The notes beneath the pieces were generated by a model. It searched no databases. It was not told the DNA's origin and saw only the letters and a program-made list of their open reading frames with translations. From positions 128,001 to 192,000 of the forward strand of contig QMRC01000001.1 in assembly GCA_003649205.1 (NCBI GenBank): 64,000 nt of DNA, read 5' to 3'. The DNA is from Thermoprotei archaeon (lineage in GTDB: Archaea > Thermoproteota > Thermoprotei > Thermoproteales > B15-G16). This document shows positions 25,336-64,000 of this stretch, one piece after another (the stretch's first letter is position 1; each line of letters opens with the position of its first letter). The position numbers and the translations under genes were made by a program.

Positions 25336-25734
25336 CTTCTACTAATTCCCTAAGTGTTACCTTCTGTAAACTTTGGTGGTGCGGTGGAGGTATTCCTTGG
25401 GGTGTAGAGGCCTATAGCTGGTTTTCAGAGGACTTACGATCCTGTAATTGGTGATACTCATAGCTTACTACTTGAGTATGGGTACTCTACACTATTTAGG
25501 GTACTTAGTTGATTAGTTGATCTCTTTTCGTGAATGAAAGAGGATGTGTCCAGGATTGGTTATGTTCTTTTTCACGGGCTTTCTCATGATGTAGAGGATG
25601 TGTTGTGTATGGTGTTCTGAGGAGAGTTTATTGAGGGTTACGTGAAGTAGGTTCTTGAGTCTAGTGTCTGTAGGTCTGATGTGAAGTTTTGAGGTGTTGT
25701 AACTAGGTCAATGGTTCATGGTGGAGAGTAGTAC

Positions 25735-26491: not shown

Positions 26492-26504
26492 TTGTTAAAT
26501 AGTC

Positions 26505-27764
26505 TTGATCCTGTTTCAGTTTTGGGTGATTTGTATTGACATCTACCATAGTATTCACTTAACGTGTATCAATTGTGGTGAAGTGTTTCCTCCAAATGCT
26601 GTTTTGTATACTTGTCCTCGTTGTGGTTCTCTTCTTGAGGTAAGGTATGAGTTGAGAGTAGGTGTTTCATGGTCTATCTTTAGGTCAAGGCCTTTCACTA
26701 TGTGGAGATATCGTGAGTTGATTCCTGTTGATACAAGGTACGTGGTTTCTCTTGGTGAAGGTGGTACACCACTGTACAGAGCTGAGAAGTTAGCTAGGTG
26801 GGTTGGTGTTAAGCGTCTTTACTTGAAGTTTGAGGGTGCTAATCCGACAGGTTCGTTTAAGGATAGAGGTGTTTGTGTTGGTATTGCGAAAGCTCTGGAG
26901 TGTGGTGCTAGGGTTGTTGCCTGTGCTTCAACGGGTAATACTGCTGCTTCTGTCGCTGCGTATTCAGCGAGAGCTGGAGTGAAATGTGTTCTCTTCTTAC
27001 CTGAAGGTAAGGTTGCTCCTGGTAAGTTATTTCAAGCACTTCTCCATGGAGCTACAGTAATCGAGCTGAATTGCAACTTTGATGAAGCACTGAGGTTAGT
27101 GCTTAAGCTATGTGGGCGAGGTTGCATGTACTTACTGAACTCAGTTAATCCATGGAGGTTAGAGGGTCAGAAGTCTATTGCGTATGAGATAGCTGATGTC
27201 ATTGGTGTTCCAGATTATGTCGTTGTCCCTGTGGGTAATGGTGGAAACATATCAGCTATATGGAAGGGCTTTCGTGAACTACATGACCTCGGTCTAGTAG
27301 GTGAATTACCTAGGATGATTGCTGCTCAAGCTACGGGCGCTGCACCTATCGTTAAGGCATTTAGGGCTGGTAAGGTAACGGTAGATCCTGTTAATGAGCC
27401 TGAGACTATAGCTACAGCCATTAGGATTGGAAATCCTGTCAATGCACCTAAAGCACTTAAAGCGCTTTACGAGTCTAGAGGACTTGCTGAAGCTGTTAGC
27501 GATTACGAGATATTGGAAGCGCAGGTAGCTATCGCTAGGTATGAGGGTATTGGTGTTGAGCCTGCTAGTGCTACCTCAGTTGCTGTATTGAGGAAGCTAG
27601 TTCATGAGGGAGTACTTGAACCTGATGCAACATATGTATGTGTTCTCACAGGACATGCACTTAAGGATCCTTCGGTAGTAGATTACCTCAGTAAATGGGT
27701 TGAAAGGTATCGGTGTGGTGTAGGTGATATTCACTACATTCTTGAAACCGTGCTGAGGAAGTGA
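26505..27764 (+). CDS. thrC: Threonine synthase
   Basis: N-terminal Zn ribbon, NPTGSFKDRG, ASTGNT, PVGNGGN, LTGHALKD. Confidence 0.92.
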   Translation: MILFQFWVICIDIYHSIHLTCINCGEVFPPNAVLYTCPRCGSLLEVRYELRVGVSWSIFRSRPFTMWRYRELIPVDTRYVVSLGEGGTPLYRAEKLARWVGVKRLYLKFEGANPTGSFKDRGVCVGIAKALECGARVVACASTGNTAASVAAYSARAGVKCVLFLPEGKVAPGKLFQALLHGATVIELNCNFDEALRLVLKLCGRGCMYLLNSVNPWRLEGQKSIAYEIADVIGVPDYVVVPVGNGGNISAIWKGFRELHDLGLVGELPRMIAAQATGAAPIVKAFRAGKVTVDPVNEPETIATAIRIGNPVNAPKALKALYESRGLAEAVSDYEILEAQVAIARYEGIGVEPASATSVAVLRKLVHEGVLEPDATYVCVLTGHALKDPSVVDYLSKWVERYRCGVGDIHYILETVLRK

Positions 27765-48553: not shown

Positions 48554-50377
48554 CTAGTGTGTGACTTTCTTCACTAGGTACCTGGGTGAGTCAATTGGTC
48601 TTCCTAGTAATTCTCCAAGTCTATACGATAGGAATTGTAGTGGTATTGCAAATGCTATTGGTGCTATATGTCTTGTAGTTGGTGGGACGAGTAGTGTGGG
48701 TACACCTACCATACGTAGATTTTCATCGTGCTCAAACCCTACACTGATTACGGTAGCTCCCCTCTCCTTAGCTACTTTCATTAGAGGGTACGTAGCTTCT
48801 GCTGCTACCTTCTCGACGGGTACTATGAATATGGTGAAGAAGTTCTCACCTATGAGTACTATTGGTCCATGTTTGAACTCTCCTGCTTCAATACCTTCAG
48901 CGTGAATGTATGCTACTTCCTTGAGCTTAAGTGCTCCCTCTAGTGCTATTGGGTACGTAATTCCCCTAGATATGACGTATCCACTCCTACACTTTACTAT
49001 TTTCTTAGCTGCTTCAGAAGCTACTGCATCAATGTTCTTCATGTGTTTGGTAAGTTCCAAAGCATACTTCTTCAGCTCTTCAACTCTATTCCTGAACTCT
49101 GAGGCTGATAGCTCTCTCCTCTCCTTCGCTACTCTTAGAGCCACTATGTAGAGTACTGCCAGGGTAGAGGTAAAGGTCTTTGTTGCTGGTACAGCTAATT
49201 CAGGTCCTGCCGCTATTGGTAAGTACAGATTCGAGAGATTTGCTAATTTAGAACCTATGTAGTTTGTTATTCCAAGAATTGTTGCACCTCTAAGCTTTGC
49301 TTCGTATACTGACTTTATGACATCTGATGTCTCTCCTGACTGTGATATCGCTATCACGACAGTTCCTGGTCCTACATTCTCAACGTAGTATAGTGGGAAT
49401 TCAGCAGCACTAACAACTATTGGACTTATCTTAGCTAGTTCAGAGAGATAGTATGAACCTACGAGTCCTGCATGGAGACTAGTACCGTCAGCAATTATGT
49501 ATATGCTCTCAGCTTCTTGGAGTAGTCGAGAAGCAAATGTCAGGTACTTTTCCTGAATTGACGATAATGTCCTCAGTAGAGCATACGGTATCTCATAGAT
49601 TTCCCTAAGCATATGGTGTGGAAATCCATCAGTGTAAATATACTCCGCCTTTACTTCAAGTGGTTTAAATTCCTTCTCCAAAGGCCTCATCTCTTTTACA
49701 TCCATGAAGCGTACACCATCTCTAGATAGAACAGCTAACTCACCACCCCTAAGTTCCGTAACTACGTCAGTAAAACCATGTAGAGAGCTCCTTGTTGAAG
49801 CTATAGCAATCAGATCTCTCGATAACCCAACATAGAGTTCCTGAAGAGAGGTGTAGGCAAGTATCGATCTCGATTCAGCATGTAGAACTACAAAGCTAAA
49901 GAAACCTTCAAGTTTCCTAGCTACAGCAGCTACAGCTTCCTCTACACTTATACCCTCTTTCAACTCATCCTCCAGCAAGTGAGCTATAACTTCGAAATCA
50001 CAGCGAGAAACTACTCTATGCCCTTTCACAAACAATTCATCCCTTAACATCTCGTAGTTTGCTATAGCACCATCACCAACAACAGCAATCAAACATGAGC
50101 AATCAGCGTGTGGATGAGCGTTATCCACATGTGGTCTTCCATGTGTAGAGAACCTGGTATGACCAATAGCTACATCACTTCGGCAAGAGGATAGGGCACG
50201 ATCCCGATACACCTTATTGATATCACCAACACCCTTGCGTACCTCAATAATATGGTCTCTAAGGAAGGCTATACCAGCTGTATCTGAACCCCTAAATGCC
50301 ATCCTCCTCAAACACTCAACAACGATACCAATGACGTCCGAACCCGATCTCGAAATCACACCACATACACCACCCAC
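48554..50377 (-). CDS. glmS: GlmS-like protein with degenerate glutaminase domain
   Basis: SIS motifs SQSGETSD, ATKTFTS, EGALKLKE, GEFKHGP; likely start GTG 50377 (MGGVCG) after a GAGGTGA SD. Confidence 0.85.
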   Translation of the reverse strand: MGGVCGVISRSGSDVIGIVVECLRRMAFRGSDTAGIAFLRDHIIEVRKGVGDINKVYRDRALSSCRSDVAIGHTRFSTHGRPHVDNAHPHADCSCLIAVVGDGAIANYEMLRDELFVKGHRVVSRCDFEVIAHLLEDELKEGISVEEAVAAVARKLEGFFSFVVLHAESRSILAYTSLQELYVGLSRDLIAIASTRSSLHGFTDVVTELRGGELAVLSRDGVRFMDVKEMRPLEKEFKPLEVKAEYIYTDGFPHHMLREIYEIPYALLRTLSSIQEKYLTFASRLLQEAESIYIIADGTSLHAGLVGSYYLSELAKISPIVVSAAEFPLYYVENVGPGTVVIAISQSGETSDVIKSVYEAKLRGATILGITNYIGSKLANLSNLYLPIAAGPELAVPATKTFTSTLAVLYIVALRVAKERRELSASEFRNRVEELKKYALELTKHMKNIDAVASEAAKKIVKCRSGYVISRGITYPIALEGALKLKEVAYIHAEGIEAGEFKHGPIVLIGENFFTIFIVPVEKVAAEATYPLMKVAKERGATVISVGFEHDENLRMVGVPTLLVPPTTRHIAPIAFAIPLQFLSYRLGELLGRPIDSPRYLVKKVTH

Positions 50378-50399
50378 ATCCATCACCTCATCAATTAAT

Positions 50400-52157
50400 T
50401 TACACCAGTAACTTTACACCGAAGTCCCTGAGCAACCTAGTAACAACCTCTCTAACCTCCTCCGGAGTAGAAGCTTCATCAATAAGCTCATCAATTATCG
50501 GCTTTATCTTTGAAACATTGAGTTTTCTAATCACGTACTTAGTCCTACCAACAAAGCTTGGTGATACACTGAGCTTCCTAATACCAATGGATATCAGTAT
50601 AGGTATGGCATAGACATTACTAGTCATCTCACCGCAGATCTCAACATCTAGGCCACACCTCCTAGCTCTCTCAACAACATCCCTAATTAACCTTAGAACA
50701 GCAGGATGAAGTTCACTATAGAGATGAGCTACGCGAGGATTCTCTCTATCTACAGCAAGAACGTATTGCGTCAAGTCATTTGTACCCAAGCTTATAAACT
50801 CTATTGGTCCTGCTTTAACGAACCTATCAAGTAAGATGGCAGCAGCAGGTGTTTCAACCATTATACCGAGCTTTGGTCTCGAATATCTCACACCTTTCTC
50901 TCGAAGTTCATTCTCAACCTCTTCCACGATCTTCATAAACTCCTTAACCTCGATAGGACTTGAAACGAGAGGTAACATAATCCGTAATTTATCACCAACC
51001 CTAGCTGCGAGACGTAGAGTAGCTTCAATAAATGGCTTCAGCAACTCGTCCCTGTACTGAAGCAGAAGCCTAATACCACGAAGGCCAAGTTGAGGATTCG
51101 ATTCAGGTGTTAACTGTAGGAACTTCACAGGTTTATCAGCACCAATATCAAGTGCACGAACTGTTACCTCTCCATCAACTGAGTTCACTATCTCCTCAAG
51201 TACCTTCTCAATATCTTCAGCAGTTGGGGGAGAAGATCTACCCATGTAGACGAACTCCAGACGAAGTATACCAATACCTTCACCACCGTAAGACTTAAGC
51301 ACCTTTGCCTCCTCAATAGAACCTACATTACAGAGGACATGGACTCTAATACCATCTCTAGTCACAGCTTCTTTAAGTGCTTCCTCCCTACATACCCTAC
51401 TCAATTCTCTATACATCGCAATTACGTCACGATACCTCTCAAGAGTACTCTCTCTCGGATTAATTATCAAGACACCATTTATGCAGTCAAGGATACATGT
51501 ATAACCGTCACTCAATGTAGATACGTCGAGATCACTAACTATCAGGTACGGTATTCCATAGCTCCTAGCTAGTATAGCTACATGCGATGTTAAACCACCT
51601 TCTCTTGAGACAATACCACTGATACCACATCGAATTAGGTTCATAAAGTCTAGTGGTAGTATCTTATCAGCAACAACAACCTTACCCCTCAGAAGCTTTA
51701 CTTCCTTCTCGTAGACCCCCATCAAAATACCTATCAACCTTGTAGCTAGATCCTCCAAATCGTGAACTCTAAGAGCAATAGTAGAGCTGCTAGCCTCCTT
51801 AAGCTGTTTAGCATATCTTTCAAATACATTCTTCACAGCTACCTCAGCCCTAATTCCTTCAGAGAGTATAAGCTCGGTAGCTTCAGCTACTAACGCTTCT
51901 AACATCATGACCTCAGCATCAAGTAGATCCTTTTCCTCCTCTGGTGCAGACTCCTTAAGCTTCTCAAGCTCCTCCATTAACCTCTTCTTCGCTCTCTCAA
52001 GTCTATCTACCTCAGCATTCACATCACGAACCTTCTCACTCTCAATAGCACCCTCCAAGACTACTTTCCGTTTAAGAACAGCAATAGCACTGTACGTCAA
52101 ACCTGGTGAAGCTACTAATCCCCTATAGATCCTCTCCACATCAACACCTCCAAACAC
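50400..52157 (-). CDS. ptsI: PTS enzyme I
   Basis: GGLTSHVAILAR (phospho-His), RALDIGADK, NPQLGLRGIR, MVETP, GTNDLTQY, CGEM. Confidence 0.95.
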   Translation of the reverse strand: MFGGVDVERIYRGLVASPGLTYSAIAVLKRKVVLEGAIESEKVRDVNAEVDRLERAKKRLMEELEKLKESAPEEEKDLLDAEVMMLEALVAEATELILSEGIRAEVAVKNVFERYAKQLKEASSSTIALRVHDLEDLATRLIGILMGVYEKEVKLLRGKVVVADKILPLDFMNLIRCGISGIVSREGGLTSHVAILARSYGIPYLIVSDLDVSTLSDGYTCILDCINGVLIINPRESTLERYRDVIAMYRELSRVCREEALKEAVTRDGIRVHVLCNVGSIEEAKVLKSYGGEGIGILRLEFVYMGRSSPPTAEDIEKVLEEIVNSVDGEVTVRALDIGADKPVKFLQLTPESNPQLGLRGIRLLLQYRDELLKPFIEATLRLAARVGDKLRIMLPLVSSPIEVKEFMKIVEEVENELREKGVRYSRPKLGIMVETPAAAILLDRFVKAGPIEFISLGTNDLTQYVLAVDRENPRVAHLYSELHPAVLRLIRDVVERARRCGLDVEICGEMTSNVYAIPILISIGIRKLSVSPSFVGRTKYVIRKLNVSKIKPIIDELIDEASTPEEVREVVTRLLRDFGVKLLV

Positions 52158-52187
52158 TGGAATTACAATTGAGGTGGAGAACTCAGC

Positions 52188-52203
52188 GTCTCAATCATGA
52201 GAC
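52188..52203. promoter_or_regulatory. Palindrome between divergent ptsI and EIIA
   Basis: GTCTCA-ATCA-TGAGAC. Confidence 0.4.
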
Positions 52204-52280
52204 AGTTACTCGAGTTAAAGTACTTATTTATATTCACTTACACTTAACACCTCTCTGAAGTGTAGACAAGGTGTTGAGTC

Positions 52281-52709
52281 ATGACCGGCGTAGTAATTGT
52301 ATCACATGGTAGGTTTGTTGATGGGATACTCGACTCTGTAAGGATGCTCCTAGGCTCTGATGTACTGAATAAGGTCACTAGCGTCGTATTGACTGAAATG
52401 GATTCTGTTGAAGGGCTTGTACAGAGAGTTAAGGAAGCTATTGAGAAGGTAAGAGATGAAAATGGAGTACTTGTATTAGTTGATCTCTTTGGTGGTACAC
52501 CATCGAGAGCAGCTGCCATGATAGTTATTGAGAACCCTAATGTTGAGGTAGTAGCTGGACTCAACTTACCAATGCTACTACAAGTCCTTCTAAATCTAGA
52601 TAAACCTGCTAATGAACTTGCAAAGCTAGCTGTTGAAGCAGGTAGGGAAGGGATAATACATGTAAGCGAGAGAATTAGGGAACAAGTACTGAAGACTAAG
52701 GAGCAGTAA
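52281..52709 (+). CDS. PTS mannose-family EIIA
   Basis: VSHG, VDLFGGTP, GLNLPML. Confidence 0.93.
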   Translation: MTGVVIVSHGRFVDGILDSVRMLLGSDVLNKVTSVVLTEMDSVEGLVQRVKEAIEKVRDENGVLVLVDLFGGTPSRAAAMIVIENPNVEVVAGLNLPMLLQVLLNLDKPANELAKLAVEAGREGIIHVSERIREQVLKTKEQ

Positions 52710-52721
52710 CCCACTAGGTAT

Positions 52722-53225
52722 CTAGGCCTTGACCAGACCTTTACTCTTTAGTAGCTCATAGAAGTCCTGAGCTTTTTCACTGGGAAGCATCTGGTACACT
52801 AATCTAATACCCATCCTCACCATCTCTTCAAAAGCCTTGACATCATCCATATCAACAGCAAAGCTCTTAACAACGAGAACCTTACCCTCTTTCCAAGCAC
52901 TTTGCCCAACATTAACCCAATCTATACGTAGATTACTCTCTTTAATTAGCTTCAGACAGGTAGTTGCTTTAGCTACAATTATCATTATATTGCTCCTCTC
53001 GTCAAAATTTCGGTTTCGAATCTTCTCAATAGCTTCACTGACCTTTAGCACCTCAACCTTCGTATTTGGTGGTGCGAGTGCAATCTGAAGCTGCTTCAGT
53101 ATAGGGTTTGAAGCTATAGTATCGTCAACGACCCAAATCTCATTTATGCCATATGCATTGACCCAACCAACAGTAACCTGACCGTGGATGTACCTATCAT
53201 CTATTCTTATCAACTTAATAGGCAT
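52722..53225 (-). CDS. PTS mannose-family EIIB
   Basis: RIDDRYIHGQV. Confidence 0.93.
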   Translation of the reverse strand: MPIKLIRIDDRYIHGQVTVGWVNAYGINEIWVVDDTIASNPILKQLQIALAPPNTKVEVLKVSEAIEKIRNRNFDERSNIMIIVAKATTCLKLIKESNLRIDWVNVGQSAWKEGKVLVVKSFAVDMDDVKAFEEMVRMGIRLVYQMLPSEKAQDFYELLKSKGLVKA

Positions 53226-53327
53226 AGTAACTCAACTCCACGCTCTTTAAAGAGGTAGGAAGCGAGTAGGGGAATTAAAATTTAGGTTAAGTATTAAGGA
53301 AGGAAAAGATAAGGGGTTATAGGTGGC

Positions 53328-55073
53328 TTAGCCAGGTGCTAGGACGCCTATCAGTCCAAGTACGAAACCAATTACGAAGTACAGCCCAAGTACCTTTATC
53401 GGTGAAATACCCTTCTTCATCAATGCAAATGCTCCTAGGAAGAATGCCAGTGGTATTAATCTAGGCATTATCTTATCGATACACTCCTGTATTGATATTG
53501 CTGCACCCTTCATACCAACAATCTGTAATGGTACCTTAACATTTACGTAGGTTACACCTAAAGCAGCAATAACTGCAACTGCTAAAGCGGCTAGTGCTGT
53601 TCTGATAATCTCTATTCTACCTGTCCTTAGTATAGTTGCAATACTTAGGCCATACTTGTAACCGTAGTACAGTAGAAGCCAACCAACGATGAACACAACT
53701 GGTATCCAAAGTACTGCTGCTACAACTGGTCCTACGAAACCTGCAGTCATAGCTAGTGATGCACCTATACCAAAGGCAATTGGTCTCCAGGTGAACCAGA
53801 AAATACCATCACCGAGACCAGCTAGTGGTCCCATGAGTGATGTCTTGATGCCACGAACGGTCTCCATGTCTGCTCCACTCTCTTCTAGTGCAGCGTCTAT
53901 ACCTACGATCAGTGGTATCATAACTGGGTTTGTGTTGAAGAACTCATTGTGCATCTTCATCCAAGTCTTCAATTCATCCGGTGTCTTCCTCAGTTTCTTC
54001 TCTATGTGAGTCATGATGAAAGCGTAAGCTGAACCTTGCATTCTCTCGTAGTTCCAAGCCCATTGTGACGCAAAAGCAATCTTGAGAAATGTCTTCACTA
54101 AGTCCTTCTTAGTGAGAACACGCTGCCCTTCTGTAGGTGTGGCAGTAGTTGGTGCTGCAGCTCTAATAGCCTCCCAAAGTTCTTTGCGCCAAACAAGGAA
54201 TATTAGACCTGCAACCAGTAATGCAACACCTAAGATGGGTAGCTTTAGGTAGGCTATGAGGACGTAACCTAGTATCAACCATGGAAGCATTTCACTAGTG
54301 TAGAGTAGCTTTAGCAACCAACCTAGACCAATAGCAGGCATTAACCAACCTGCGACGCCAAGTGCGGTGAAAATCTTCTTCACTATTGGTGTATTGACGA
54401 AGGTCCTCAACGTCTCCACTGCCTGTGGACTCATGCCCAATGCCGCAAATGCGACAACTGGGATCAGGTACGCTATAAACCACTGGAATGTACCTAGAGC
54501 AACTACTGGTCCAATAGCACTAATATTACCTGAATCAATGAGCCTATCAACTAGGTGTGAGTAACCAACACAACCCATTCTAGCTAAGACAACCTCTATG
54601 TACATAGCTAGTAGACCTATTGGAACTACCAGAGCTACTATGCTAGAGAGAGCTTCTGTCGTAACCTCAGTAATACCTAGGATCTTTGCAAACATCACTG
54701 CTACGATTGTTGCAACCCAAGCACAGGGTGCAGCAGCACCACCAATAGGGAAGACACCTAGGTACACTAGCTCTAACATTGCTGATAGGACGAGAGCGAC
54801 TTCAGGAATACCGAGTATGAATCCAGCGATAGTACCTATGAGGAGTGGTTCAGTGAATCCTAGTGGGTTAAAGCCAAGAAATGTATAGACAATTACTAGC
54901 AGCAATGCAGCAAGGCCAGCTAGCTGCAGTGGTGTGATTACGACACCAGCTTGCGTTGGTGATGGTAGGAATGTATTGAGTCCTAGAACTGGTTTAGCTA
55001 AGGCTAGTGTCAAGAGTATTAGGCAGAGGGTAGAGATGTATAGCTTACCATTAGTACGTATTTGCGCGATCAT
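53328..55073 (-). CDS. PTS mannose-family fused EIIC-EIID
   Basis: IIC: LELVYLG..IGGA, MPAIG; IID: WNYERMQ, FFNTNP, MGPLAGLGD. Confidence 0.92.
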   Translation of the reverse strand: MIAQIRTNGKLYISTLCLILLTLALAKPVLGLNTFLPSPTQAGVVITPLQLAGLAALLLVIVYTFLGFNPLGFTEPLLIGTIAGFILGIPEVALVLSAMLELVYLGVFPIGGAAAPCAWVATIVAVMFAKILGITEVTTEALSSIVALVVPIGLLAMYIEVVLARMGCVGYSHLVDRLIDSGNISAIGPVVALGTFQWFIAYLIPVVAFAALGMSPQAVETLRTFVNTPIVKKIFTALGVAGWLMPAIGLGWLLKLLYTSEMLPWLILGYVLIAYLKLPILGVALLVAGLIFLVWRKELWEAIRAAAPTTATPTEGQRVLTKKDLVKTFLKIAFASQWAWNYERMQGSAYAFIMTHIEKKLRKTPDELKTWMKMHNEFFNTNPVMIPLIVGIDAALEESGADMETVRGIKTSLMGPLAGLGDGIFWFTWRPIAFGIGASLAMTAGFVGPVVAAVLWIPVVFIVGWLLLYYGYKYGLSIATILRTGRIEIIRTALAALAVAVIAALGVTYVNVKVPLQIVGMKGAAISIQECIDKIMPRLIPLAFFLGAFALMKKGISPIKVLGLYFVIGFVLGLIGVLAPG

Positions 55074-55196
55074 CGGGGGAAAAGTAGTAATATTGACGTT
55101 TTTATAGATTTAATGATACTACCCTGTCAAGTGATGAAATAAATTTAGAGAGATAGGTAACCGTGTAAGTACTTGAGTACTAATTGAGGGGTCAGC

Positions 55197-55475
55197 ATGA
55201 CTGTGGAAGCTAGTTTCAAGATCCTAAATAGGTTAGGTCTACATGCTAGGCCAGCTGCACTATTCGTTAAGACCTGTCGTAAATTTAAGTCGAAGATAGT
55301 GATCTTCAAGGGTGATAGAATGGCGGATGCAAAGAATATACTTCAAGTACTTGCACTTGATGTAAACCAAGGAGATGAGATAAAGGTAGTTATTGAGGGT
55401 GAAGACGAGAAGGAAGCCTATATGGAGATAGAGAATCTTATCAAGAAGGTACTACCTGAGGTAGATAGAGGATAG
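55197..55475 (+). CDS. ptsH: Phosphocarrier HPr
   Basis: GLHARPAA, DAKN, EGEDE. Confidence 0.95.
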   Translation: MTVEASFKILNRLGLHARPAALFVKTCRKFKSKIVIFKGDRMADAKNILQVLALDVNQGDEIKVVIEGEDEKEAYMEIENLIKKVLPEVDRG

Positions 55476-55514
55476 TGTTCAGTACTTGAAGAGTATTGCA
55501 GACATGAATCATAC

Positions 55515-56798
55515 ATGAATCATAAACGAAATTTAAGTTGGGACAACGTGGATCAGTTAGGTGATTCCCTCTTGAGTCTTTCATTGAGGATAAAAGACAT
55601 CGGTCCTGTATCGGAGTTAAGAGGCGAACTTCCTAGACTAACTGTAGTGTATGGGAGAGTAGGCTCTGGTAAGAGCTACATCTTCAGAATATTGACACTA
55701 CTACACCTAGCTCACCAGCTAGCAGAGCTGTGGGGTTTTAGGAAGGGAGGAAGGGAGGACTATGCTAAGGCATTAGCTAGATTAGTTATGTTGGAGTGTG
55801 GTCATTTTGAAGAGGCTTTCTCTGTTGATCCAGAAGTCTTGAGAACTCAGTACGTACCTCATTTCCTTCTGAAGAGAGGTATGGAGAGAGGTACCTACGA
55901 GGTACTTACTTCAGGTAATTTCCTCGCAAGACTTGAGGTATTAAAGAAAGGTATGGACTTAGAGCTTGGAGATGAGTTTAGTGAGTACGTCATTGTGACC
56001 ATACCACAGGAGAGGAATCCAGTACTGATACAGCGCGATTTAGAGACTTTCTCAGCTCGCTTAAGGAAATTGTATGAGAGGTGGGGAACCAGTATACCAA
56101 TACGTCAGCAGGCTTACCTAGCACTTACCTCTGAACTAATGCGGAGAAGTCCTGTCTACATGCACTACCTCATGAATTTACTAGTTGCTACATCCTTTTT
56201 CCTAGAAGAGCGAGAGGTTGAATGTATTGAGCTTGGTAGAGATCATAGACTCAAGCTACTTGTTCACGACATTGGTGAGGTCCTGATATGTGATGAGTAT
56301 TCAACAGGGTCCAGCTACTATGACCTTGAGACACCACTCGTACTTCCTCAAGGAGCAATTGACTACCTACTACTCACACTACTACTCAAAGCTCTTAGAA
56401 AGGCCGCGAGGGAAGTACGTGGTATCAAGTTTTTCCTCGTAGTTGATGAATTCATGGCACACGCAGATCCATTACTAACGATGAAGGCACTAGACCTGGT
56501 TCTCGAGATACTTTACAGTGAGGAGAGAATAAGCATAGTTCTTGTAACTCACAATCCAGATGTAGTGAGTAGGTTACTGAACATCCTTCAGCATAGTAAG
56601 GAGTTCAGAGAGAGATTACTGAATCAAGTAAAGTTCCTCTACCTCGAGTACTTGTCCGAAAAACAGGGAGTAGTAGGCCAATTCTCAGGATTGAAGTTAG
56701 AGGACAATGTTGTGTTACCCGAAAGAGAAATACCTTGGTTAGAGGAGTATACACGGAAACTCACATCACCTACCGAAATACCGAAGGTACCTAGTTGA
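55515..56798 (+). CDS. Soluble ABC-type ATPase (AAA_15/AAA_21-like)
   Basis: IKDIGP, GRVGSGKS, LPQG, LVVDEFMAHADP, VTHN. Confidence 0.8.
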   Translation: MNHKRNLSWDNVDQLGDSLLSLSLRIKDIGPVSELRGELPRLTVVYGRVGSGKSYIFRILTLLHLAHQLAELWGFRKGGREDYAKALARLVMLECGHFEEAFSVDPEVLRTQYVPHFLLKRGMERGTYEVLTSGNFLARLEVLKKGMDLELGDEFSEYVIVTIPQERNPVLIQRDLETFSARLRKLYERWGTSIPIRQQAYLALTSELMRRSPVYMHYLMNLLVATSFFLEEREVECIELGRDHRLKLLVHDIGEVLICDEYSTGSSYYDLETPLVLPQGAIDYLLLTLLLKALRKAAREVRGIKFFLVVDEFMAHADPLLTMKALDLVLEILYSEERISIVLVTHNPDVVSRLLNILQHSKEFRERLLNQVKFLYLEYLSEKQGVVGQFSGLKLEDNVVLPEREIPWLEEYTRKLTSPTEIPKVPS

Positions 56799-56807
56799 GG
56801 TACCTAA

Positions 56808-57239
56808 ATGAGTCTCGTGCTCGATGCATCAGCATTTAAAATACTTGCAAAGCAGAGAAACCTATACGACTTATGTAGGATGTTAAGTGAACTAAGTAGA
56901 AGAGATGGTCGAAGATACATGATTTTGGTACCGAATTCGCTACTTAAGCTATATGAGCGATTAGTTCCAAGGCTTAGATTTGAACCTCGAATATTGAAGA
57001 GAAGCATCCCATTAGCTATTCCAGAAGCTCAGCAGTATCGAAGCAATAGGCTCTTTCAACAGCTTCTACGTGATTTAACTGAATTCTTTAGATCTGAAAA
57101 GCATACTGGTGCTGAGGAAGATGCTGAGTGGCTAGCAACAGCATTGATGTACCACATAGAGTACATAAAGGATGGAGACTTCCTCGTCATAACTCATGGT
57201 GAGTACGAGTATAGACGATTTGCATCAGCAAAAAACTAA
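56808..57239 (+). CDS. PIN-domain-like protein
   Basis: LVLDASAF, EEDAEWLATA, LVIT. Confidence 0.65.
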   Translation: MSLVLDASAFKILAKQRNLYDLCRMLSELSRRDGRRYMILVPNSLLKLYERLVPRLRFEPRILKRSIPLAIPEAQQYRSNRLFQQLLRDLTEFFRSEKHTGAEEDAEWLATALMYHIEYIKDGDFLVITHGEYEYRRFASAKN

Positions 57240-57846
57240 TCGAGCACAGGATACAGCAACTAGGAGAAGCTCACTGGCAACCATGTTGGTACAAAGTTGA
57301 GCACCTCTAGACCTCAGTAATCAGTACAAGTAAGAGAATTATCAGCATCTAACTTAACTTCAAACCATGTATAGGGTTTCGAGCAATGACCACAAAGCTT
57401 ACACAGCACTCAAGTACCTGTGACATTAGGTATGTAAGTAATCGCTATCTCTCTGAACTTAAGCTCACAAACTCCAGCACAAGCAACTCTCTGAACATTC
57501 TACACCATGCCTATGACAATAATGCACTAGCTACGCGTAAGACCCAGGCACATAATCCTGGGATTTAACCTCTTCACTTCCCTTACTTTACTAACCTCAA
57601 CATGCCTATGTAATTCAGTATCGTTACAGGTAGTAGGACCGTGAGCCTCCAAGTATTCAAGTAGGTATTCAGGGTAATTCCTGTAATTTTTGATTGAGTT
57701 CCCATTAGATAGCAGGTCTCTTCATATAGCTTGTCTGTATCACATACCCAGCATTTAAAGCACCTTGCTAACAGGAGTTGCTTGGCAGGAACTGTCGCCT
57801 CTTAGCAAGCTTGAAGTTAGGAAGTGTGTGTTAGGTGTAGGGGGTT

Positions 57847-57924
57847 TGGCGCCCCGGCCGGGATTTGAACCCGGGTCGGCGGAGTGACAGTCCGCCATAC
57901 TAGACCAGGCTATACGACCGGGGC
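57847..57924 (-). tRNA. tRNA-Asp(GTC)
   Basis: GCGGA-CTGTCAC-TCCGC, encoded CCA. Confidence 0.95.
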
Positions 57925-58135
57925 TGTTACGTCGTCTACCATATCTCCCTACTGCGTTTTTATTCGTTACTTCATGAATTCCCTTTACTTTGCTATGTGT
58001 CTTGCTTCATTTCAGCTGCTCAGTTCACGCATTAGTTTGTTTTTGTTTTTCTGTATTTCTTTTGGTGTTCTGTCTCTGTGATGTACCTTGTTTTTGGTCA
58101 TTGTTTTGTGTGGTGTTTCGTCCTTGGTTTCTTGT

Positions 58136-58948
58136 ATGGTTGTTCTTGTTGTTGGTTTTGATCCTGGTCTTAAGTCGTATGGTTATGCTGTTGTTTGTCG
58201 TAGGTTTGATGTTGTTTTGAGGTTTTGTGATCTTCTTTGTCGTAGGGGTGTTTCTCCTGTTTTGGTTTGTCGTATTGGTGGTTTTGGTGTTGTTGCTGGT
58301 GCTCTTGAGGTTAGTAACTACGTTGATCCTAGGGATTTCGTTGTTGAGTTCTTGCTGAGGTTTAGGGATTATGTTTCTCGTGGTTCTGATGTTGTTCCTC
58401 ATTATCGTTACTGTGGTTTTAATTGGTTGATTCCTCATTCTCTTCTACATGATTTGGGGATCTACGTTGTATCTCCTTCGAGATTGAATAGGGTTATTAG
58501 GTGTGCTCTATCTACTTGGTTTAGGAAGTACAAGTATTGTCTGAGGTGTGTTCTTGGTCATCTCTTCTGGTCGTTGTCTAGGCTCTATCACTTCTATAGG
58601 TCTAGGGATGTTGTTGAGATTGTTGTTGCTAGTGAGAGTATCAAGTACGTTTATGCTGGTGGTGAGGAGCTGTATACTAGGTATGTGTGGAGGAGCGTTG
58701 CTAGGATAGCGACTGCAATGTTTAGGTACTGTGTAGCTGGATTCAGTAGGACTGTTATTCTCGATAATCGTACTGTTATGCGACTTGTTAAGCGTTGTCC
58801 TCTCTGTTTAACTAGGTTACGTAGGAAGAGAGCTAGGTACCTTAGTTGTCCCAGGTGTGGTGTTATGCTTCATAGAGATGTTGTTGATGCTGTTAATTAT
58901 GGTGTCTACGTTGCTCGTATGCTTTGTGATGAGCGATCGGAGCGCTGA
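58136..58948 (+). CDS. Truncated TnpB-like RuvC plus Zn-finger protein
   Basis: VGFDPG, IVVASE, CPLC..CPRCG, LHRDVVDAVN; ATG at 58136. Confidence 0.78.
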   Translation: MVVLVVGFDPGLKSYGYAVVCRRFDVVLRFCDLLCRRGVSPVLVCRIGGFGVVAGALEVSNYVDPRDFVVEFLLRFRDYVSRGSDVVPHYRYCGFNWLIPHSLLHDLGIYVVSPSRLNRVIRCALSTWFRKYKYCLRCVLGHLFWSLSRLYHFYRSRDVVEIVVASESIKYVYAGGEELYTRYVWRSVARIATAMFRYCVAGFSRTVILDNRTVMRLVKRCPLCLTRLRRKRARYLSCPRCGVMLHRDVVDAVNYGVYVARMLCDERSER

Positions 58949-59033
58949 GGAGGTGATGATGCATTGCTGACCTAGCTAATTTTCCGCACCCGAGAGGTGC
59001 GGGGGCGATCAGTCCGCCGTCTGAACTCTTTTT
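58926..59033 (+). ncRNA. Putative structured RNA (C/D-box motifs plus IS605 right-end-like hairpin)
   Basis: GTGATGA-12 nt-CTGA-GGAGG-TGATGA..CTGA; CCGCACC-CGAGA-GGTGCGG; TCAG; CTGA; T-run. Confidence 0.6.
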
Positions 59034-59055
59034 ACTAACTGACTGACTGTGTGTT

Positions 59056-59865
59056 GTGGTGATGCTCATGGTCTTGCTGTGGCTTCTCGGTACTGGTGCT
59101 GCTGAGGGTATTCCTGTTCATGGCTGTCACTGTACTGCATGTATGGAGGCTAGGAGGAATCCGCTGTATAGGAGGAGACAGGCGACTTACCTCGTTGATA
59201 CAGGTAACTTAGTGATGTTACTTGATTGTGGTTCTCAGGAGGTTGTTCATAGGGAGCTTCTCGATGTTGAGATTGATTACGTCTTTATATCTCATCCTCA
59301 CTTAGATCACGTAACTGGTATACATGATCTTAGGTGGAGTAAGCAGAGTAAGCAACCTACTTTGGTCATTAACCGTAGGTTCATGTACTGTGATGAGATG
59401 ACTTACCTAATACCTAGGTTGAGGATCTTCTCTGTTGAATACTATGAGGAAGGTAGTGTGTATAGGTTGTGTGATGGTACTAGGATCACTCCCATTAGGT
59501 TGAGGCACGGTGATTTACCTACGTATGGCTTCCTCATCGATTGTGGTAAGGTTATTGCGTATCTTCTCGATACGAAGGGTCTTCCTCAGGAATCTCTGAA
59601 GTTGCTTAGAGAGTACAGTATTGATGTTGCTCTAGTTGACTCTACATTTGGTAGTGGATACGTAAGTGATGCTCACAATACCGTTGTTGATGCTCTTGAG
59701 TTCTCACGTATGCTCAATGTTAGGAAGCTCGTGTTGACCCACATCTCGCACAATGTTACAGGTGGTATGAGAGAGATTGAGGAGCTTGCTAGGAGGTACG
59801 TGAAGGAGCTCTCAGTTAACTGTGAGATTTTAATTGCTCTCGATGGTATGGAGATTCACCTATAG
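59056..59865 (+). CDS. PhnP-like metallo-beta-lactamase-fold hydrolase
   Basis: GTGAAEGIP..CHCTAC, SHPHLDH, THISH. Confidence 0.88.
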   Translation: MVMLMVLLWLLGTGAAEGIPVHGCHCTACMEARRNPLYRRRQATYLVDTGNLVMLLDCGSQEVVHRELLDVEIDYVFISHPHLDHVTGIHDLRWSKQSKQPTLVINRRFMYCDEMTYLIPRLRIFSVEYYEEGSVYRLCDGTRITPIRLRHGDLPTYGFLIDCGKVIAYLLDTKGLPQESLKLLREYSIDVALVDSTFGSGYVSDAHNTVVDALEFSRMLNVRKLVLTHISHNVTGGMREIEELARRYVKELSVNCEILIALDGMEIHL

Positions 59866-59901
59866 TAGCAAACTTTTTATACTTGTAATACATGTATTAC
59901 A

Positions 59902-60411
59902 GTGGTGACATGTATGGGTGAGCGAAGTGAGAAGAAGGTACTGAGTGTTAGAGGTGTTGACGAGGTTACTTATCGTGAATTTGTTGCTACTGCTAAGGAA
60001 CTTGGTAAGACTGTTGGTCAGGCATTGACTGAAGCTATGAGACTGTACTTACTGTTTGCTAAATCTGCATCTACTGCCCTCTCATCACTAGCCAATAACA
60101 TTAATGCTTTGAAGAAGTTGACTAAAAATGCCCTATCAGCAGCATCTGAGGGGTTTAGGGAGGTTATCCCTGAAACCATTAGTAATATCGATGAATTAGA
60201 GGTTGGTAAGGCTGATTTAGAGGCTCTTGGTAAGAGAGTTACGTTCAACAACATTAAGAGGCTCATATTTAGAGAAGATGTCGATAGAGAGACCTTCGAA
60301 AAGTATGTTGTCAGCATATCGAATATTGATGAATTAGTAATTCCTAGTACGCTACCTAGGTTGCTAGTGCTTGCAAGGTGTTGTAATGTTAAGAAGTTAG
60401 CTGTTAGATAG
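59902..60411 (+). CDS. Hypothetical protein with N-terminal ribbon-helix-helix-like motif
   Basis: SVRGVDEVTYREF..GKTVGQALTEAM; internal ISNIDEL repeat. Confidence 0.7.
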   Translation: MVTCMGERSEKKVLSVRGVDEVTYREFVATAKELGKTVGQALTEAMRLYLLFAKSASTALSSLANNINALKKLTKNALSAASEGFREVIPETISNIDELEVGKADLEALGKRVTFNNIKRLIFREDVDRETFEKYVVSISNIDELVIPSTLPRLLVLARCCNVKKLAVR

Positions 60412-60467
60412 GTTTAATTCTCGTAAGATTTTTCTAGCTCTCTCTCACTTCCCTCTTTTGTGATTGT

Positions 60468-61853
60468 ATGAGGAGGACGAAGATAATAGCTACCATTGGG
60501 CCTTCTAGTAGATCTTATGATATACTGTTTAGGTTGGTCCTTGAGGGTGTTAGTGGTTTTAGGCTGAATTTCGCTCATGGTACTCATGAGGAGAAGCTTG
60601 AGGAGGCTAAAGCTGTTAGAGCTATTGAGCGGGAGCTAGGTACCTACGTTACTATTGTCTGTGATCTATCTGGTCCAAGTGTGAGGTTAGGTAAGGTACC
60701 TGAGTTCTACGTTCATGAGGGTGAGCAAGTTCATTTAGTGTACTCCGATGTTGGTAAAGCTGAGGAAAAGGAGGTACCTGTACCTGTTAGGCAGTTCTTT
60801 GAAGTTCTTGAGGATGGCGACATCGTCCTTATTGACGATGGTAGGGTTTGGCTTCGTGTAGATAAGATACGTAGGGATAGAGTGGTGTGTACAGTCTTGA
60901 CCAGTGGTGCTATTAGACCTGGTAAGGGTATAGGTATTAAGGGTAAGGACTTAGAGTTACCTCCACTAACTAGCAAGGATGTCGAGGACATTAAGTTCTG
61001 TGTAGCTAATGGAATTGTCGATTACTTTGCACTATCATTCGTTAAGCGTGGCGATGACGTTAAGATACTGAGAGACTTACTAAATGACCTCGGTGCCGAT
61101 GATGTTGGTATACTAGCTAAGATTGAAACTAAGAGTGCTGTTGATAGGGTGGATGAGATTGTTCAGCAGAGTGATGGTGTTATCATTGCTCGTGGTGATC
61201 TAGGTATTAGTCTTGGTCTTGAGAAGGTACCAATTGTTCAGCATGAGATCGTTAGGAAGTGTAGGTACAGTGGTAAACCGTCGATAATAGCTACGCAGAT
61301 TCTCGAGTCAATGGTTGAGTCACCAGTACCCACGAGAGCTGAGGTCGTTGACATCATGGTGTCAGTACAGGAAGGTGTCGATGCTATCTTACTAACCAAT
61401 GAAACTGCTATTGGTAAATACCCAGTGACCTGTGTTACGTGGTTGAAAAGAGTCTTACTGGAGGCAGAGCAGAGGTATCAACCTGAACAAGTTGATGCTA
61501 CTGATGACCTCTACGATAAATTCGCTAGAGGTGTTGCCTCTCTAGCTGACTTCATCGGTGCTAAGCTACTGATCTTTACAAGGAGAGGAACAACAGCTAG
61601 GAGGATAGTGAAGTATAGACCGAGAACAGCAATCTACGTAGCAACACCAAGTGAGGTCATTGCTAGGAGGCTCAACGTCATGTGGGGTGTAAAGTCATTT
61701 GTAATTGAGGAGAGAGATGTCAGTAAGGCGCTCGATAAATTCCTTGAGCACCTAAAGGAGAGGGGTGACTTAACGTACGGTGATATCGTCATACTGACAG
61801 GTGGTATGAGAGGAGGAGCAACAGACTTAGCAAGAGTAGAGATTGTCAGGTAG
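60468..61853 (+). CDS. pyk: Pyruvate kinase
   Basis: TKIIATIGP, AKIE, ARGDLG, ATQILESM, PTRAE. Confidence 0.95.
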   Translation: MRRTKIIATIGPSSRSYDILFRLVLEGVSGFRLNFAHGTHEEKLEEAKAVRAIERELGTYVTIVCDLSGPSVRLGKVPEFYVHEGEQVHLVYSDVGKAEEKEVPVPVRQFFEVLEDGDIVLIDDGRVWLRVDKIRRDRVVCTVLTSGAIRPGKGIGIKGKDLELPPLTSKDVEDIKFCVANGIVDYFALSFVKRGDDVKILRDLLNDLGADDVGILAKIETKSAVDRVDEIVQQSDGVIIARGDLGISLGLEKVPIVQHEIVRKCRYSGKPSIIATQILESMVESPVPTRAEVVDIMVSVQEGVDAILLTNETAIGKYPVTCVTWLKRVLLEAEQRYQPEQVDATDDLYDKFARGVASLADFIGAKLLIFTRRGTTARRIVKYRPRTAIYVATPSEVIARRLNVMWGVKSFVIEERDVSKALDKFLEHLKERGDLTYGDIVILTGGMRGGATDLARVEIVR

Positions 61854-62334
61854 ATACATCTCTCTTACCCAGCTTCTCTATGAATTCACAACATCGTCTA
61901 ACTAAGTCAGGTCTCCTAGCGTCAATAACTACATCAACAGAGTACCTATGTGCAACACCACCATCCTCACTACTTCTGAACGAAATTACAACATCAACTC
62001 TCTGTAGGTAGAACGGTGCTTCGGTAGCGAATTCAGACATCACCCTATTAGCTAGCGCTATAGCTGTCTCAAGATCAGGTACATCAGGTACATGAATTTG
62101 AACAACATTACCACGATTGAGAGTAATAGGTCTAAAACCTCTCATCTGTAGCCTACGAATGTAGTCAAGAGGTACATACGGTGGTTCAGAGACAGCTCTA
62201 AAAGCCTCCATGATATCCTCACGAGATCTAGCTAACACAGCAACCTTACCAATGAAGTACACCCTAAGCTTACTAACATCAACACCCAGTACCTCAGCTA
62301 CCTTAGAGAGAACCTCACACATAAGTACACCCAC
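61846..62334 (-). CDS. Uncharacterised protein, paralog of 1247..1750
   Basis: AVSEPP, RVDVVISFRSSEDGG. Confidence 0.8.
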   Translation of the reverse strand: MGVLMCEVLSKVAEVLGVDVSKLRVYFIGKVAVLARSREDIMEAFRAVSEPPYVPLDYIRRLQMRGFRPITLNRGNVVQIHVPDVPDLETAIALANRVMSEFATEAPFYLQRVDVVISFRSSEDGGVAHRYSVDVVIDARRPDLVRRCCEFIEKLGKRDVST

Positions 62335-62422
62335 AGAGATCTTTGAGAACAGGAATAAGTACTTTGAAGCTTAGGGAAGTAGAGTGAAGTGAGAAGTACA
62401 CTGTTGGTGGTGTTGGTTAGTC

Positions 62423-62886
62423 GTGATTTCTGGGTACCTAATTACAACCGTCAGTATCATAGTAACTGTAGTGTCGTCAGCTGCTACTTTAGCTTATTGG
62501 CTTGGTAGAAAACTTACTCGTATCGAGTATGAGGTAAGTACCTTGAGAAGGATGATTAAGGGTCTTGCAGAAGCTTCAGTGGAAGCACACTCAATAGCTA
62601 TGGAGTACCCGTCACTAAAGGGATTCTTGAGAGGAGTGAAGTCGATTATTTGAGGAAGAGAGTTAGTGCTGTGTACAGTATGCATGTGAGATCCAATCCT
62701 GCAATTAGTGAAGAGGAGTTGAGACTAATTAAGGAGTTCATTGCTAAGGATCCAGATGAAGTAACTCTTGAAGAGTGTGAGCGAGTTTACGATGCTGAAA
62801 CTGGAGATTTGAGAGGATTCTACGCAGCTATATACGCAACCTACGTTAGGGGATACCTCATAAGCAAGAAAGCTAGAAAGAGATGA
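62423..62886 (+). pseudogene. Split 'LAYWLGRK' (PaREP-like) gene
   Basis: Two abutting ORFs in different frames match the two halves of the 10860..11325 remnant. Confidence 0.65.
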
Positions 62887-62937
62887 GCAGTAGCGCCATA
62901 CCACGCCCCTTATATTCTCTCTCAACAAGGTAACTAC

Positions 62938-63732
62938 TTGATGCACTACCCTCGGTACCTAATCAAGGAAAGAAGTACATTTGATCCTATAGAGTTAGCT
63001 AGAGTTACGGAGTCCATTGTGTGTAAGCACATTAATGGTGTACAGTTACGTAAGTACGATGACTTCTATGTAGTTTGGGTTTATAATGGTGTAGCTACTG
63101 GCTACGTTGTTGGGTGTAACCTTCGTTGCTACTTCTGTTGGTCATATATTTCGAGAGATTTCCCTGAGAGATACGGTACCTACTATAGTCCTGAGGAGGT
63201 CGTTACTAACCTAAGGAGGTTAGTCAAAGAGTACGGTGTTGACAAAGTTCGTATTAGTGGTGGTGAACCAACAGTATCTAGAGATCACTTACTTCAAGTT
63301 CTTGAACTCGTTGAACAAGTACCTGAAATCAAGCTCTTTCTACTTGAGACAAATGGTATTCTCCTTGGTCACGATGAGGGTTATGTTCGTAAGCTAGCTC
63401 AATTCAGAAAGATTTTAGTTCGTGTTAGTTTGAAAGCAGGTACACCGGAGAAGTTTAGTGAGAGAACAGGAGCTAAACCAGAGTTCTTTGAGCTTCCCTT
63501 CAGAGCTATTAGACATCTTCTGAAGTACGGTGTTCCTGTCTATGTAGCTGCTATGACTGATCCTAGGTTGATGAGTAATGAGGAGAGACTTGAGTTGATG
63601 AAGAAGTTAGCTGAGATAGATCCTGACTTGGTTAAGAATCTTGAGGAGGAGAGTGTTGATCCATATGAGACTACACTTCTAAGACTTGAAGCAGCTCAAG
63701 TCAATATACCTTGGGAATCACTTGAGTTCTAG
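62938..63732 (+). CDS. Radical SAM protein, paralog of 1..558
   Basis: GCNLRCYFC, ISGGEPT, LETNG. Confidence 0.9.
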   Translation: MMHYPRYLIKERSTFDPIELARVTESIVCKHINGVQLRKYDDFYVVWVYNGVATGYVVGCNLRCYFCWSYISRDFPERYGTYYSPEEVVTNLRRLVKEYGVDKVRISGGEPTVSRDHLLQVLELVEQVPEIKLFLLETNGILLGHDEGYVRKLAQFRKILVRVSLKAGTPEKFSERTGAKPEFFELPFRAIRHLLKYGVPVYVAAMTDPRLMSNEERLELMKKLAEIDPDLVKNLEEESVDPYETTLLRLEAAQVNIPWESLEF

Positions 63733-63750
63733 CTGGTGAGTGTAGTGAAT

Positions 63751-64000
63751 GTGAATTGGTGTGAAACGCTAAGTAGGTTACATGAGTATGTAGTTCCTGA
63801 TCTAGGAGTGAAGTTCATTGATAGAGAACTAGAGTTTGAGAAGCTCATTAAGCATTACTGTAGAGGGGATGCACCTTGGATTCACGTAATTACTGGTCCT
63901 TGGGGTTGCGGAAAGACACAGTTTGCTAGAGCAATGACGTATGCACTCCAGTTCTCAAGTGACTACGTGGTATTTTACGTGAATTTAAGTGAGGAGGAAC
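63751..64000 (+). CDS. Archaeal P-loop ATPase, runs off window end
   Basis: KFIDRELE..VITGPWGCGKT..VFYVNL. Confidence 0.8.
   Translation, partial: MNWCETLSRLHEYVVPDLGVKFIDRELEFEKLIKHYCRGDAPWIHVITGPWGCGKTQFARAMTYALQFSSDYVVFYVNLSEEE

Follow-up and report, generated by a model that had tools for sequence, protein, structure and literature searches.

The gene at 58136-58948 on the plus strand of a 64,000-nucleotide (nt) stretch of DNA from a Thermoprotei archaeon (contig QMRC01000001.1, positions 128,001 to 192,000; here called the window) encodes a protein of 270 amino acids (aa) which, judged by its predicted structure, is the nuclease (NUC) lobe of TnpB and nothing more: a RuvC fold with the catalytic residues D9, E167 and D248 and a four-cysteine (CCCC) TNB zinc ribbon, without the WED and REC domains. 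By a modest balance of probability, sequence and model point to a TnpB-derived, stand-alone RuvC+TNB endonuclease that would act without reading a transposon-associated motif (TAM) or a guide in the manner of TnpB. The assignment draws on the open reading frame (ORF), its ratio of non-synonymous to synonymous change (dN/dS), AlphaFold2 models, fold matches and profile alignment with hhalign.

The ORF has an ATG start and a TGA stop and is present as a single genomic copy; a longer frame with a TTG start at 58088 is likewise open. The product opens with the RuvC-I strand (aa 2-9, 58139-58162; also a strand in the model), which includes the motif VVGFDPG (aa 5-11) and the catalytic D9 (codon 58160-58162). 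Between RuvC-I and the long helix alpha1 lie elaborations specific to the family (about aa 22-112, 58199-58471), recognized in the model and as gap columns in the TnpB rows of the alignment described below. The RuvC-II strand (aa 160-167, 58613-58636) has the motif IVVASE (aa 162-167) and the catalytic E167 (codon 58634-58636), which hhalign pairs with the TnpB glutamate. The TNB zinc ribbon (aa 218-246, 58787-58873), identified by Pfam family PF07282 (Cas12f1-like TNB domain), by conservation across the alignment and by its position in the model, holds the cysteines C221 and C224 (CPLC, aa 221-224) and C238 and C241 (CPRC, aa 238-241). The RuvC-III motif HRDVVDAVN (aa 246-254, 58871-58897), with the catalytic D248 (codon 58877-58879), begins the last helix. 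An earlier note, made from the sequence alone, had described an ORF of about 270 aa opening at RuvC-I, with a RuvC-II strand, a CPLC/CPRC zinc finger and HRDVVDAVN, and a tRNA-Asp gene about 210 bp upstream that left no room for an N-terminal lobe. All of these motifs are present, and the non-coding gap between tRNA-Asp and the ATG is 211 bp, within which no in-frame ORF of at least 50 aa able to encode such a lobe was found.

Kinship to TnpB in sequence and predicted structure

The family of short proteins described below was aligned in 27 rows with archaeal TnpBs trimmed to 7 residues before the RuvC-I aspartate. All 27 rows have D9, E167, C224, C238, C241, R247 and N254, and at least 90% have D248 and C221, in agreement with the apparently intact catalytic triad of the earlier note. 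The N-terminal motifs across the family (VGFDPG, VGFDYN, VGVDNN and TGVDSN) are akin to the RuvC-I motif of archaeal TnpBs, 'xVDxNE'. D106 ('HDLG') was considered as the true RuvC-I aspartate and rejected, as no beta2 and beta3 strands follow it and, among the acidic residues of the N-terminal part, only D9 is invariant. The spacing from D9 to E167 is 158 aa, versus 94 aa for the TnpB that comes first in the alignment, with about 65 extra residues after RuvC-I, and the C-terminal tail of TnpB is absent from the family. When the family profile was compared with a profile of 21 full-length archaeal TnpBs, hhalign returned a probability of 99.5% (E 7.9e-23) over target residues 126-260 and TnpB positions 250-375 of 412, a span that covers the end of alpha1, RuvC-II, the zinc ribbon and RuvC-III. 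With the target as query, phmmer found nothing relevant and no RuvC among PDB sequences (the best match, to a mitoribosomal protein, had E 1.1), NCBIfam yielded no more than weak zinc-finger matches (E>=0.049), PHROGs gave no match, and the Pfam matches listed at E<=1 did not include the RuvC family PF02075.

AlphaFold2 models built on the 27-row alignment reached a pLDDT of 80.5 and a pTM of 0.80 for the target, and 91.2 and 0.85 for a family member from another genome (G059). The order of elements is the same in both: beta1 (with the D), beta2, an inserted short helix and strand, beta3, helices, a helix of about 40 residues, beta4 (with the E), a helix, beta5, the zinc ribbon and a last helix (RD..N). 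In the target model the insertions comprise a helix (24-36), a strand (43-47), two further helices (65-80 and 101-106) and a loop modelled with low confidence (83-94), a topology shared by the G059 member, and the zinc ribbon lies between strand 203-209 and the last helix (247-269).

All 21 Foldseek matches of the target model to the PDB at E<=1e-3 are Cas12 or Fanzor proteins; the next are ISDra2 TnpB (E 6.6e-3) and Thermus RuvC (E 7e-3). VIA-align, run on the Foldseek candidates, superposed the target model on ISDra2 TnpB (8h1j; Z 10.2, 174 aligned, model 1-265 on 182-378), AsCas12f (Z 10.7, model 1-263 on 217-416) and ISFba1 TnpB (8iaz; Z 10.6, model 1-264 on 186-385). A comparison of the G059 model with 48,161 representative chains, independent of Foldseek, ranked Cas12f first (AsCas12f, 8j1j/8dzj; Z 13.1, 181 aligned, model 1-261 on 220-415), followed by Cas12i1 (Z 13.0) and ISFba1 TnpB (Z 12.5, model 1-263 on 189-387). 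In a viral structure library, only TnpB/Fanzor-type 'transposases' were matched (34 matches at E<=1e-3).

According to the published description of ISDra2 TnpB (PMC10097598), the protein consists of WED (1-12 and 117-176), REC (13-116), RuvC (185-326 and 360-375) and TNB (327-359) domains with the triad D191/E278/D361; TAM reading falls to WED and REC, the hold on the heteroduplex to REC and RuvC, and that on the omega-RNA scaffold to WED and RuvC. Residue 1 of the target model aligns with ISDra2 residue 182-186 or so, the start of the RuvC domain, and the superposition, read against this domain map, identifies the target as the NUC lobe alone. The earlier note had proposed a nuclease-lobe-only derivative of TnpB, to be checked by structural comparison with TnpB and Cas12f; the match to the RuvC domain of TnpB and Cas12 was found by both Foldseek and VIA-align, and model residues 1-265 cover only the RuvC and TNB domains of ISDra2.

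Another reading of the fold would make the protein an analogue of RuvC-type junction resolvases, acting as a dimer on Holliday junctions or other branched DNA, for example during repair or on intermediates of mobile elements, with the zinc ribbon as a DNA clamp. The target shares with the bacterial RuvC resolvases (7w8d, 1hjr, 4ld0) a size class and a bare RNase-H core of about 150 residues beginning at residue 1, and they give its highest VIA-align scores (Z 12.1-13.2, rmsd about 3, 139-145 aligned), the top three scoring Z 13.2, 12.9 and 12.4 (rmsd 2.8-3.0; 139-144 residues aligned out of 147-158; for Z 13.2, rmsd 2.9 and 140/147). Phage, plant and poxvirus resolvases are among those that match the G059 model (Z 9-10.3). 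However, the RuvC core is common to all of these proteins, so that the high Z scores derive partly from the small size of the resolvases, and the better model, that of G059, places Cas12f, Cas12i and TnpB above them. The sequence kinship established by hhalign is likewise with TnpB rather than with PF02075, and the target has long helical insertions and a TnpB-type zinc ribbon, whereas RuvC resolvases are not known to have a zinc-ribbon insertion. A resolvase-like role is considered unlikely. Prediction of a two-copy complex on the 27-row alignment (score 0.00, mark 0.42) says nothing for or against a dimer.

A family of short proteins with a common N-terminal limit

The source genome (G000; 93.8% complete) encodes a paralogue of the target on contig C3, a frame of 311 aa in which the homologous part begins at M43 ('MQLVVGFD...'). 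It is 26% identical to target aa 4-254 (BLASTP, composition adjusted, E 7e-11), and its PF07282 score of 50.8 bits is above the cut-off. Contig C3 (291,428 bases) is a perfect palindrome centred at about 145,714, with every feature doubled, and is almost certainly an assembly artefact. Two copies of the paralogue, with the mobility that they would imply, were rejected because the contig is its own reverse complement with 0 mismatches; there is one copy.

A search with the family profile among 120 genomes of the class and 401 genomes of the phylum recovered further members that open at RuvC-I, one of 265 aa in G059 (contig C9, 'MFAVGVDNN...') and one in a 287-aa frame of G066 (contig C14); a metagenome protein, P0003, also belongs to the family. 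Among the 150 matches listed in the phylum search, only three places in the source genome and the one in G059 align from profile position 4 or earlier; all other matches listed are TnpB-sized frames or fragments that align only within profile positions 83-266 or so. In the six-frame searches of class and phylum, full-length TnpBs were matched solely over profile positions of about 95-256. The family thus comprises six sequences from four deep lineages (three families of one archaeal class and the one metagenome protein). Equally short orthologues had been suggested as a check in the earlier note, and homology does begin at RuvC-I in the G059 and G066 members, in the paralogue and in the orthologue from a second genome of the same genus (G001; 71% complete). 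In an unrooted maximum-likelihood tree of the RuvC+TNB part, a branch with support of 100/99 separates the six short sequences from the 21 archaeal TnpBs.

The paralogue as a database query retrieved itself only, and a family profile of 5 rows retrieved only three proteins (P0001, P0003 and one TnpB of 385 aa), from which it appears that the family is rare or poorly sampled. Short TNB proteins as such are not rare, since clusters of PF07282-only proteins of 174-236 aa are common among Thermoproteota in the ESM Atlas; the novelty lies in a consistent group of proteins that have the whole RuvC domain, begin at a fixed N-terminal point and come with evidence of selection. Full-text searches of the literature, together with term look-ups in PMC10691335, yielded no report of a conserved TnpB family without WED and REC, although supplementary tables may list such clades.

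Another type of miniature TnpB-like protein (about 243-250 aa) was noted, conserved in at least 11 loci (L008:994-1725, L006, L009-L012, L015 and L017-L020) in genera g3 and g6 of family f3. It has an N-terminal part of about 100 aa followed by 'AMDVNE', 'IVDLP', CPxCG...CPxC and 'NRDVNA', scores 28.3 bits with PF07282 (above the cut-off) and is not syntenic with the target.

Selection and genomic context

The sole close homologue of the target is the orthologue in G001 (94% identity), with an unbroken frame in both. This orthologue was recovered by a six-frame search, by a word-index search (1 protein among 1003 candidates) and by a HMMER scan of 1.84 billion representatives, in which it was the only protein found with the target at E<=0.001. 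The two genes differ by 33 synonymous and 19 non-synonymous changes (dN/dS 0.156 by Nei-Gojobori counting), and 34 of the 52 differences fall at codon position 3; under neutrality the binomial p is 7e-10 for the former split and 2e-6 for the latter. For neighbouring genes the ratio against G001 is 0.14 (a gene of the metallo-beta-lactamase (MBL) fold) and 0.096 (a 169-aa ORF, orf169). The gene is kept by purifying selection, and the neutral evolution that the dN/dS check of the earlier note was meant to detect was not seen. The word 'domesticated' used in that note has two genomes of one genus as its basis. Four DNA sequencing runs contained only the type found in the window (X1) and a G001-like type (X2, X3), with no third variant.

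These results bear on whether the gene is a decaying fragment of a tnpB of IS200/IS605/IS1341 type, with no function of its own. Many of the short PF07282-only proteins of Thermoproteota may be such fragments, and the extreme composition and long branch of the target would suit that origin, but the dN/dS and the intact frame in both genomes, the retention of all catalytic and zinc residues, and the shared start at RuvC-I across four deep lineages that cluster with one another make it very improbable.

Upstream of the gene lie the intergenic leader (57925-58135, plus strand; 70% G+T), delimited by alignment with G001 and by composition, and the divergently oriented tRNA-Asp(GTC) gene (57847-57924, minus strand; Rfam tRNA, 57.1 bits). 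Rightward from tRNA-Asp the source genome and G001 are collinear through the target gene, the MBL-fold gene, orf169 and pyruvate kinase; to the left the gene order differs, and synteny ends exactly at the 3' end of tRNA-Asp. The synteny with tRNA-Asp anticipated in the earlier note therefore holds for an equally short orthologue with the same tRNA-Asp/MBL order in G001, but the block is traceable in the same genus only. Of the 41 genomes searched, 39 lacked a match to the MBL-fold neighbour at E<=1e-20, and at five loci in other genera the approximately 7 kb upstream of pyruvate kinase contain neither tRNA-Asp nor a homologue of the target, the MBL gene or orf169. No full-length tnpB was found at this site in relatives, a weak test since the tRNA-Asp/target/MBL block can be followed only within the genus.

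Synonymous divergence from G001 climbs with distance from tRNA-Asp (57925-60411), from about 8.5% in the leader, as counted from the alignment of the two genomes, to dS values of 0.15 and 0.24 in the 5' and 3' halves of the gene, 0.35 in the MBL gene and 0.85 in orf169. Just past the 3' end of tRNA-Asp (55515-57239, plus strand) are a 427-aa AAA_21/AriA/AbiLi-like ATPase, of which G001 retains only a frameshifted piece, and a 143-aa ORF of no family; together they look like a small defence islet integrated at tRNA-Asp.

No transposon or CRISPR setting was found for the gene: within 50000-64000 there is neither a CRISPR-like array nor flanking inverted repeats, and the whole source genome has 0 matches to the Y1 transposase family PF01797, in accord with the absence of tnpA in the earlier note, and none to PF01385. 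Its one serine-recombinase match is on contig C8, not on the contig of the target. A profile search for full-length TnpB in the source genome detected the target, the paralogue and one N-terminal remnant only. G001 and G066 (80% complete) likewise have the short form only, whereas G059 has full-length TnpBs as well.

The N-terminal remnant (contig C2, 102981-103574) raises the further question of a split TnpB, in which a separately encoded protein would supply the WED/REC lobe in trans. It matches the WED/REC part of the TnpB profile (positions 27-151; E 3.4e-16) and includes an open frame of 128 aa (C2:103191-103574); yet the match is spread over three reading frames and stops before RuvC-I, like a decayed insertion sequence remnant, and it lies on a different contig. 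G001 and G066, both of which have genes of the short family, gave no match of this kind, and no neighbouring gene is common to the four lineages. A split TnpB is judged highly unlikely.

The four lineages share no neighbourhood and no recognizable flank: the neighbours of the target are tRNA-Asp and the MBL-fold hydrolase, and the G059 and G066 genes lie amid unrelated or housekeeping genes. The paralogue (L091:8391-9326, minus strand) is located 7 nt downstream of a gene for a 740-aa protein (L091:9333-11555, minus strand) on contig C3. The 740-aa protein combines a G+T-rich N-terminal part with a HerA/DUF87/FtsK/'mad8'-like ATPase domain, and both genes are within a cluster of ATPases (ATPase_2, AAA_15/AAA_21, AAA_5). 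By their sequences, the paralogue and the HerA-like protein could be an ATPase-nuclease pair.

The base composition of the region is unusual. Positions 58001-58400 of the plus strand are 80% G+T, compared with a mean of 0.52 (standard deviation 0.067) for 300-nt segments across the window, and the gene itself is 70% G+T, rising to 86% at third codon positions (T 169, G 62, C 25, A 14). In its product V (15.2%), R (13.7%), Y (7.0%) and C (5.2%) are plentiful, whereas there is little K, E, I, T or Q. Third-position G+T is 62.5% in pyruvate kinase and 72.9% in both the MBL gene and the paralogue, and 43 of the 1278 stop-to-stop frames of at least 200 aa in the source genome reach 66% G+T, with 0.73 in the first third and 0.68 in the last. 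The skew of the target is the extreme of a genome-wide habit. Among frames of at least 100 aa, 78 of 3134 reach 68% G+T (the palindromic half of C3 counted), and many G+T-rich frames encode ATPases, nucleotidyltransferases or island genes. The pattern would fit an excess of C-to-T and A-to-G change on the non-template strand. Within the window, G+T-rich stretches are found at 57901-58700 (plus strand), 25401-26700 (plus strand) and 8501-9200 (minus strand). At 25735-26491 (plus strand) there are two overlapping ORFs of 135 and 134 aa whose sequences look like those of a HEPN/minimal-nucleotidyltransferase toxin-antitoxin pair.

Downstream of the gene, an 8-bp hairpin (58983-59003, plus strand), recognized in the sequence and in its fold, is followed by a run of five T (59029-59033), and 58983-59033 is the likely end of the transcript. 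The stem is identical in the source genome and G001, and the G001 loop is the reverse complement with one base fewer, which at the sequence level is a loop-inversion signature of a real hairpin. Across the stop codon, a stretch resembling a C/D-box small RNA (58922-58972, plus strand) has two GTGATGA and two CTGA boxes. It scores 22.5 bits with Rfam sR33 and 19.1 bits with sR30 (E 0.07-0.1), both under the gathering score; the second guide spacing measures just 7 nt, and G001 has CTCA in place of the last CTGA.

Proposed activity and place among TnpB-derived proteins

The triad and the zinc ribbon are kept by selection, and nuclease function is therefore most likely retained; the protein would most likely still be a divalent-metal-dependent DNA endonuclease. 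With WED and REC absent, finding a target in the manner of TnpB would be impossible for the protein alone. The expected substrate is single-stranded or branched or unwound DNA entering an open RuvC site, because the RuvC site of this superfamily cuts such DNA once it is unwound, and specificity would come from the structure of the DNA or from a putative partner. In origin, the family is probably TnpB minus the N-terminal lobe, plus the approximately 65 aa of its own insertions after RuvC-I.

Several observations weigh against a stand-alone nuclease. The target by itself scores 22.5 bits with PF07282 (E 1.3e-4), under the cut-off of 26.3, its branch is very long (3.24 changes per column), and it failed the composition test, so that its placement within the family is unsure; in view of these features its function may have drifted from that of the other members. 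Model residues 83-94 and 172-177 have a pLDDT below 50, and selection was measured on one genome pair of one genus. An open RuvC site that nothing regulates would be expected to harm the cell, and no regulator was seen. The last 100 nt or so before the ATG have about 4 differences from G001 (about 4%), whereas 17.6% of the synonymous sites of the gene are changed, and a nuclease does not explain the lower dS of the 5' half of the gene. Indeed, the conservation of this upstream segment and of the 5' half, like the extreme G+T content, is explained by none of the readings. Finally, helices alpha1 and alpha2 of the TnpB RuvC domain are described as binding part of the omega-RNA scaffold (PMC10097598), so that RNA may still be bound despite the loss of WED and REC.

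These RNA contacts, which involve the stems of the omega-RNA, are among the arguments for a protein that is still RNA-guided, the smallest of the TnpB line, in which a compact RNA held by basic RuvC helices and by the insertions at aa 22-112 would replace WED and REC. In IscB, the place of REC is taken by a large omega-RNA. The target model has a long helix (114-155) with many R and K, the extra residues absent from TnpB are kept by the family, and the conservation of the leader and of the 5' half would be in keeping with this reading. But in TnpB the omega-RNA overlaps the gene at its 3' end, and the higher dS of the 3' half is the opposite of what this would lead one to expect. The flanking RNA folds no better than shuffled sequence (z -1.0 for 58020-58160, upstream; z -0.7 for 58900-59035, at the 3' end and downstream), no Rfam family other than tRNA reaches threshold in 57200-59400, the models have no domain that would read a TAM or hold a heteroduplex, and the four lineages have no flank in common. 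RNA guidance is regarded as improbable.

Beyond the absence of the WED, REC and C-terminal domains mapped in ISDra2 (PMC10097598) and the longer interval from RuvC-I to RuvC-II, the target differs from TnpB in its size (270 aa, versus the 300-450 aa given as typical in PMC10691335), and in being single-copy in a genome with no Y1 transposase. Folding of the flanks and Rfam, with two near-identical sequences to compare, gave no sign of an omega-RNA. The target is like TnpB (ISDra2, ISFba1) in its RuvC RNase-H fold with a D-E-D triad, its 'RD..A..N' RuvC-III motif and its CCCC ribbon inserted between beta5 and the last helix (alpha4), the arrangement described for ISDra2 (PMC10097598). Cas12f is the closest structural neighbour of the G059 member, and PADLOC models of Cas12f match the C-terminal part, but the short family lacks the N-terminal WED/ZF/REC half of Cas12f, and the target has no CRISPR array in the surrounding region searched. 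A parallel of another sort is offered by the TldRs, nuclease-dead derivatives of TnpB, as genes kept outside a transposon (PMC10705468). TldRs are described as retaining the RNA-binding lobes and losing the catalytic site, with RuvC-III truncated in the flagellin clade (PMC10691335); the short family is the reverse, with the catalytic site kept and the lobe that reads guide and TAM lost.

TnpB has been presented as the smallest domain arrangement that all Cas12 enzymes share and as the minimal scaffold for the growth of every Cas12 effector (PMC10097598), and the short family sits below this minimum. That the family might be a proto-TnpB, a living model of a stage before guides, or else an RNA-programmed nuclease of about 270 aa without WED and REC, is quite unlikely; if the latter were true, it would be the smallest RNA-guided nuclease known. 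The tree, being unrooted, is compatible with an ancestral as well as a derived position of the family. On the reading preferred here, that of a stand-alone RuvC+TNB endonuclease, a nuclease lobe would have survived alone with its active site intact in several archaeal lineages, the opposite of domestication of the TldR type. If active, such proteins would define the capacity of the RuvC+TNB module alone and would bear on the origin of RNA guidance, on the gating of the RuvC site and on the shrinking of genome editors; if a partner or an RNA is needed, they would represent a new way to target this module.

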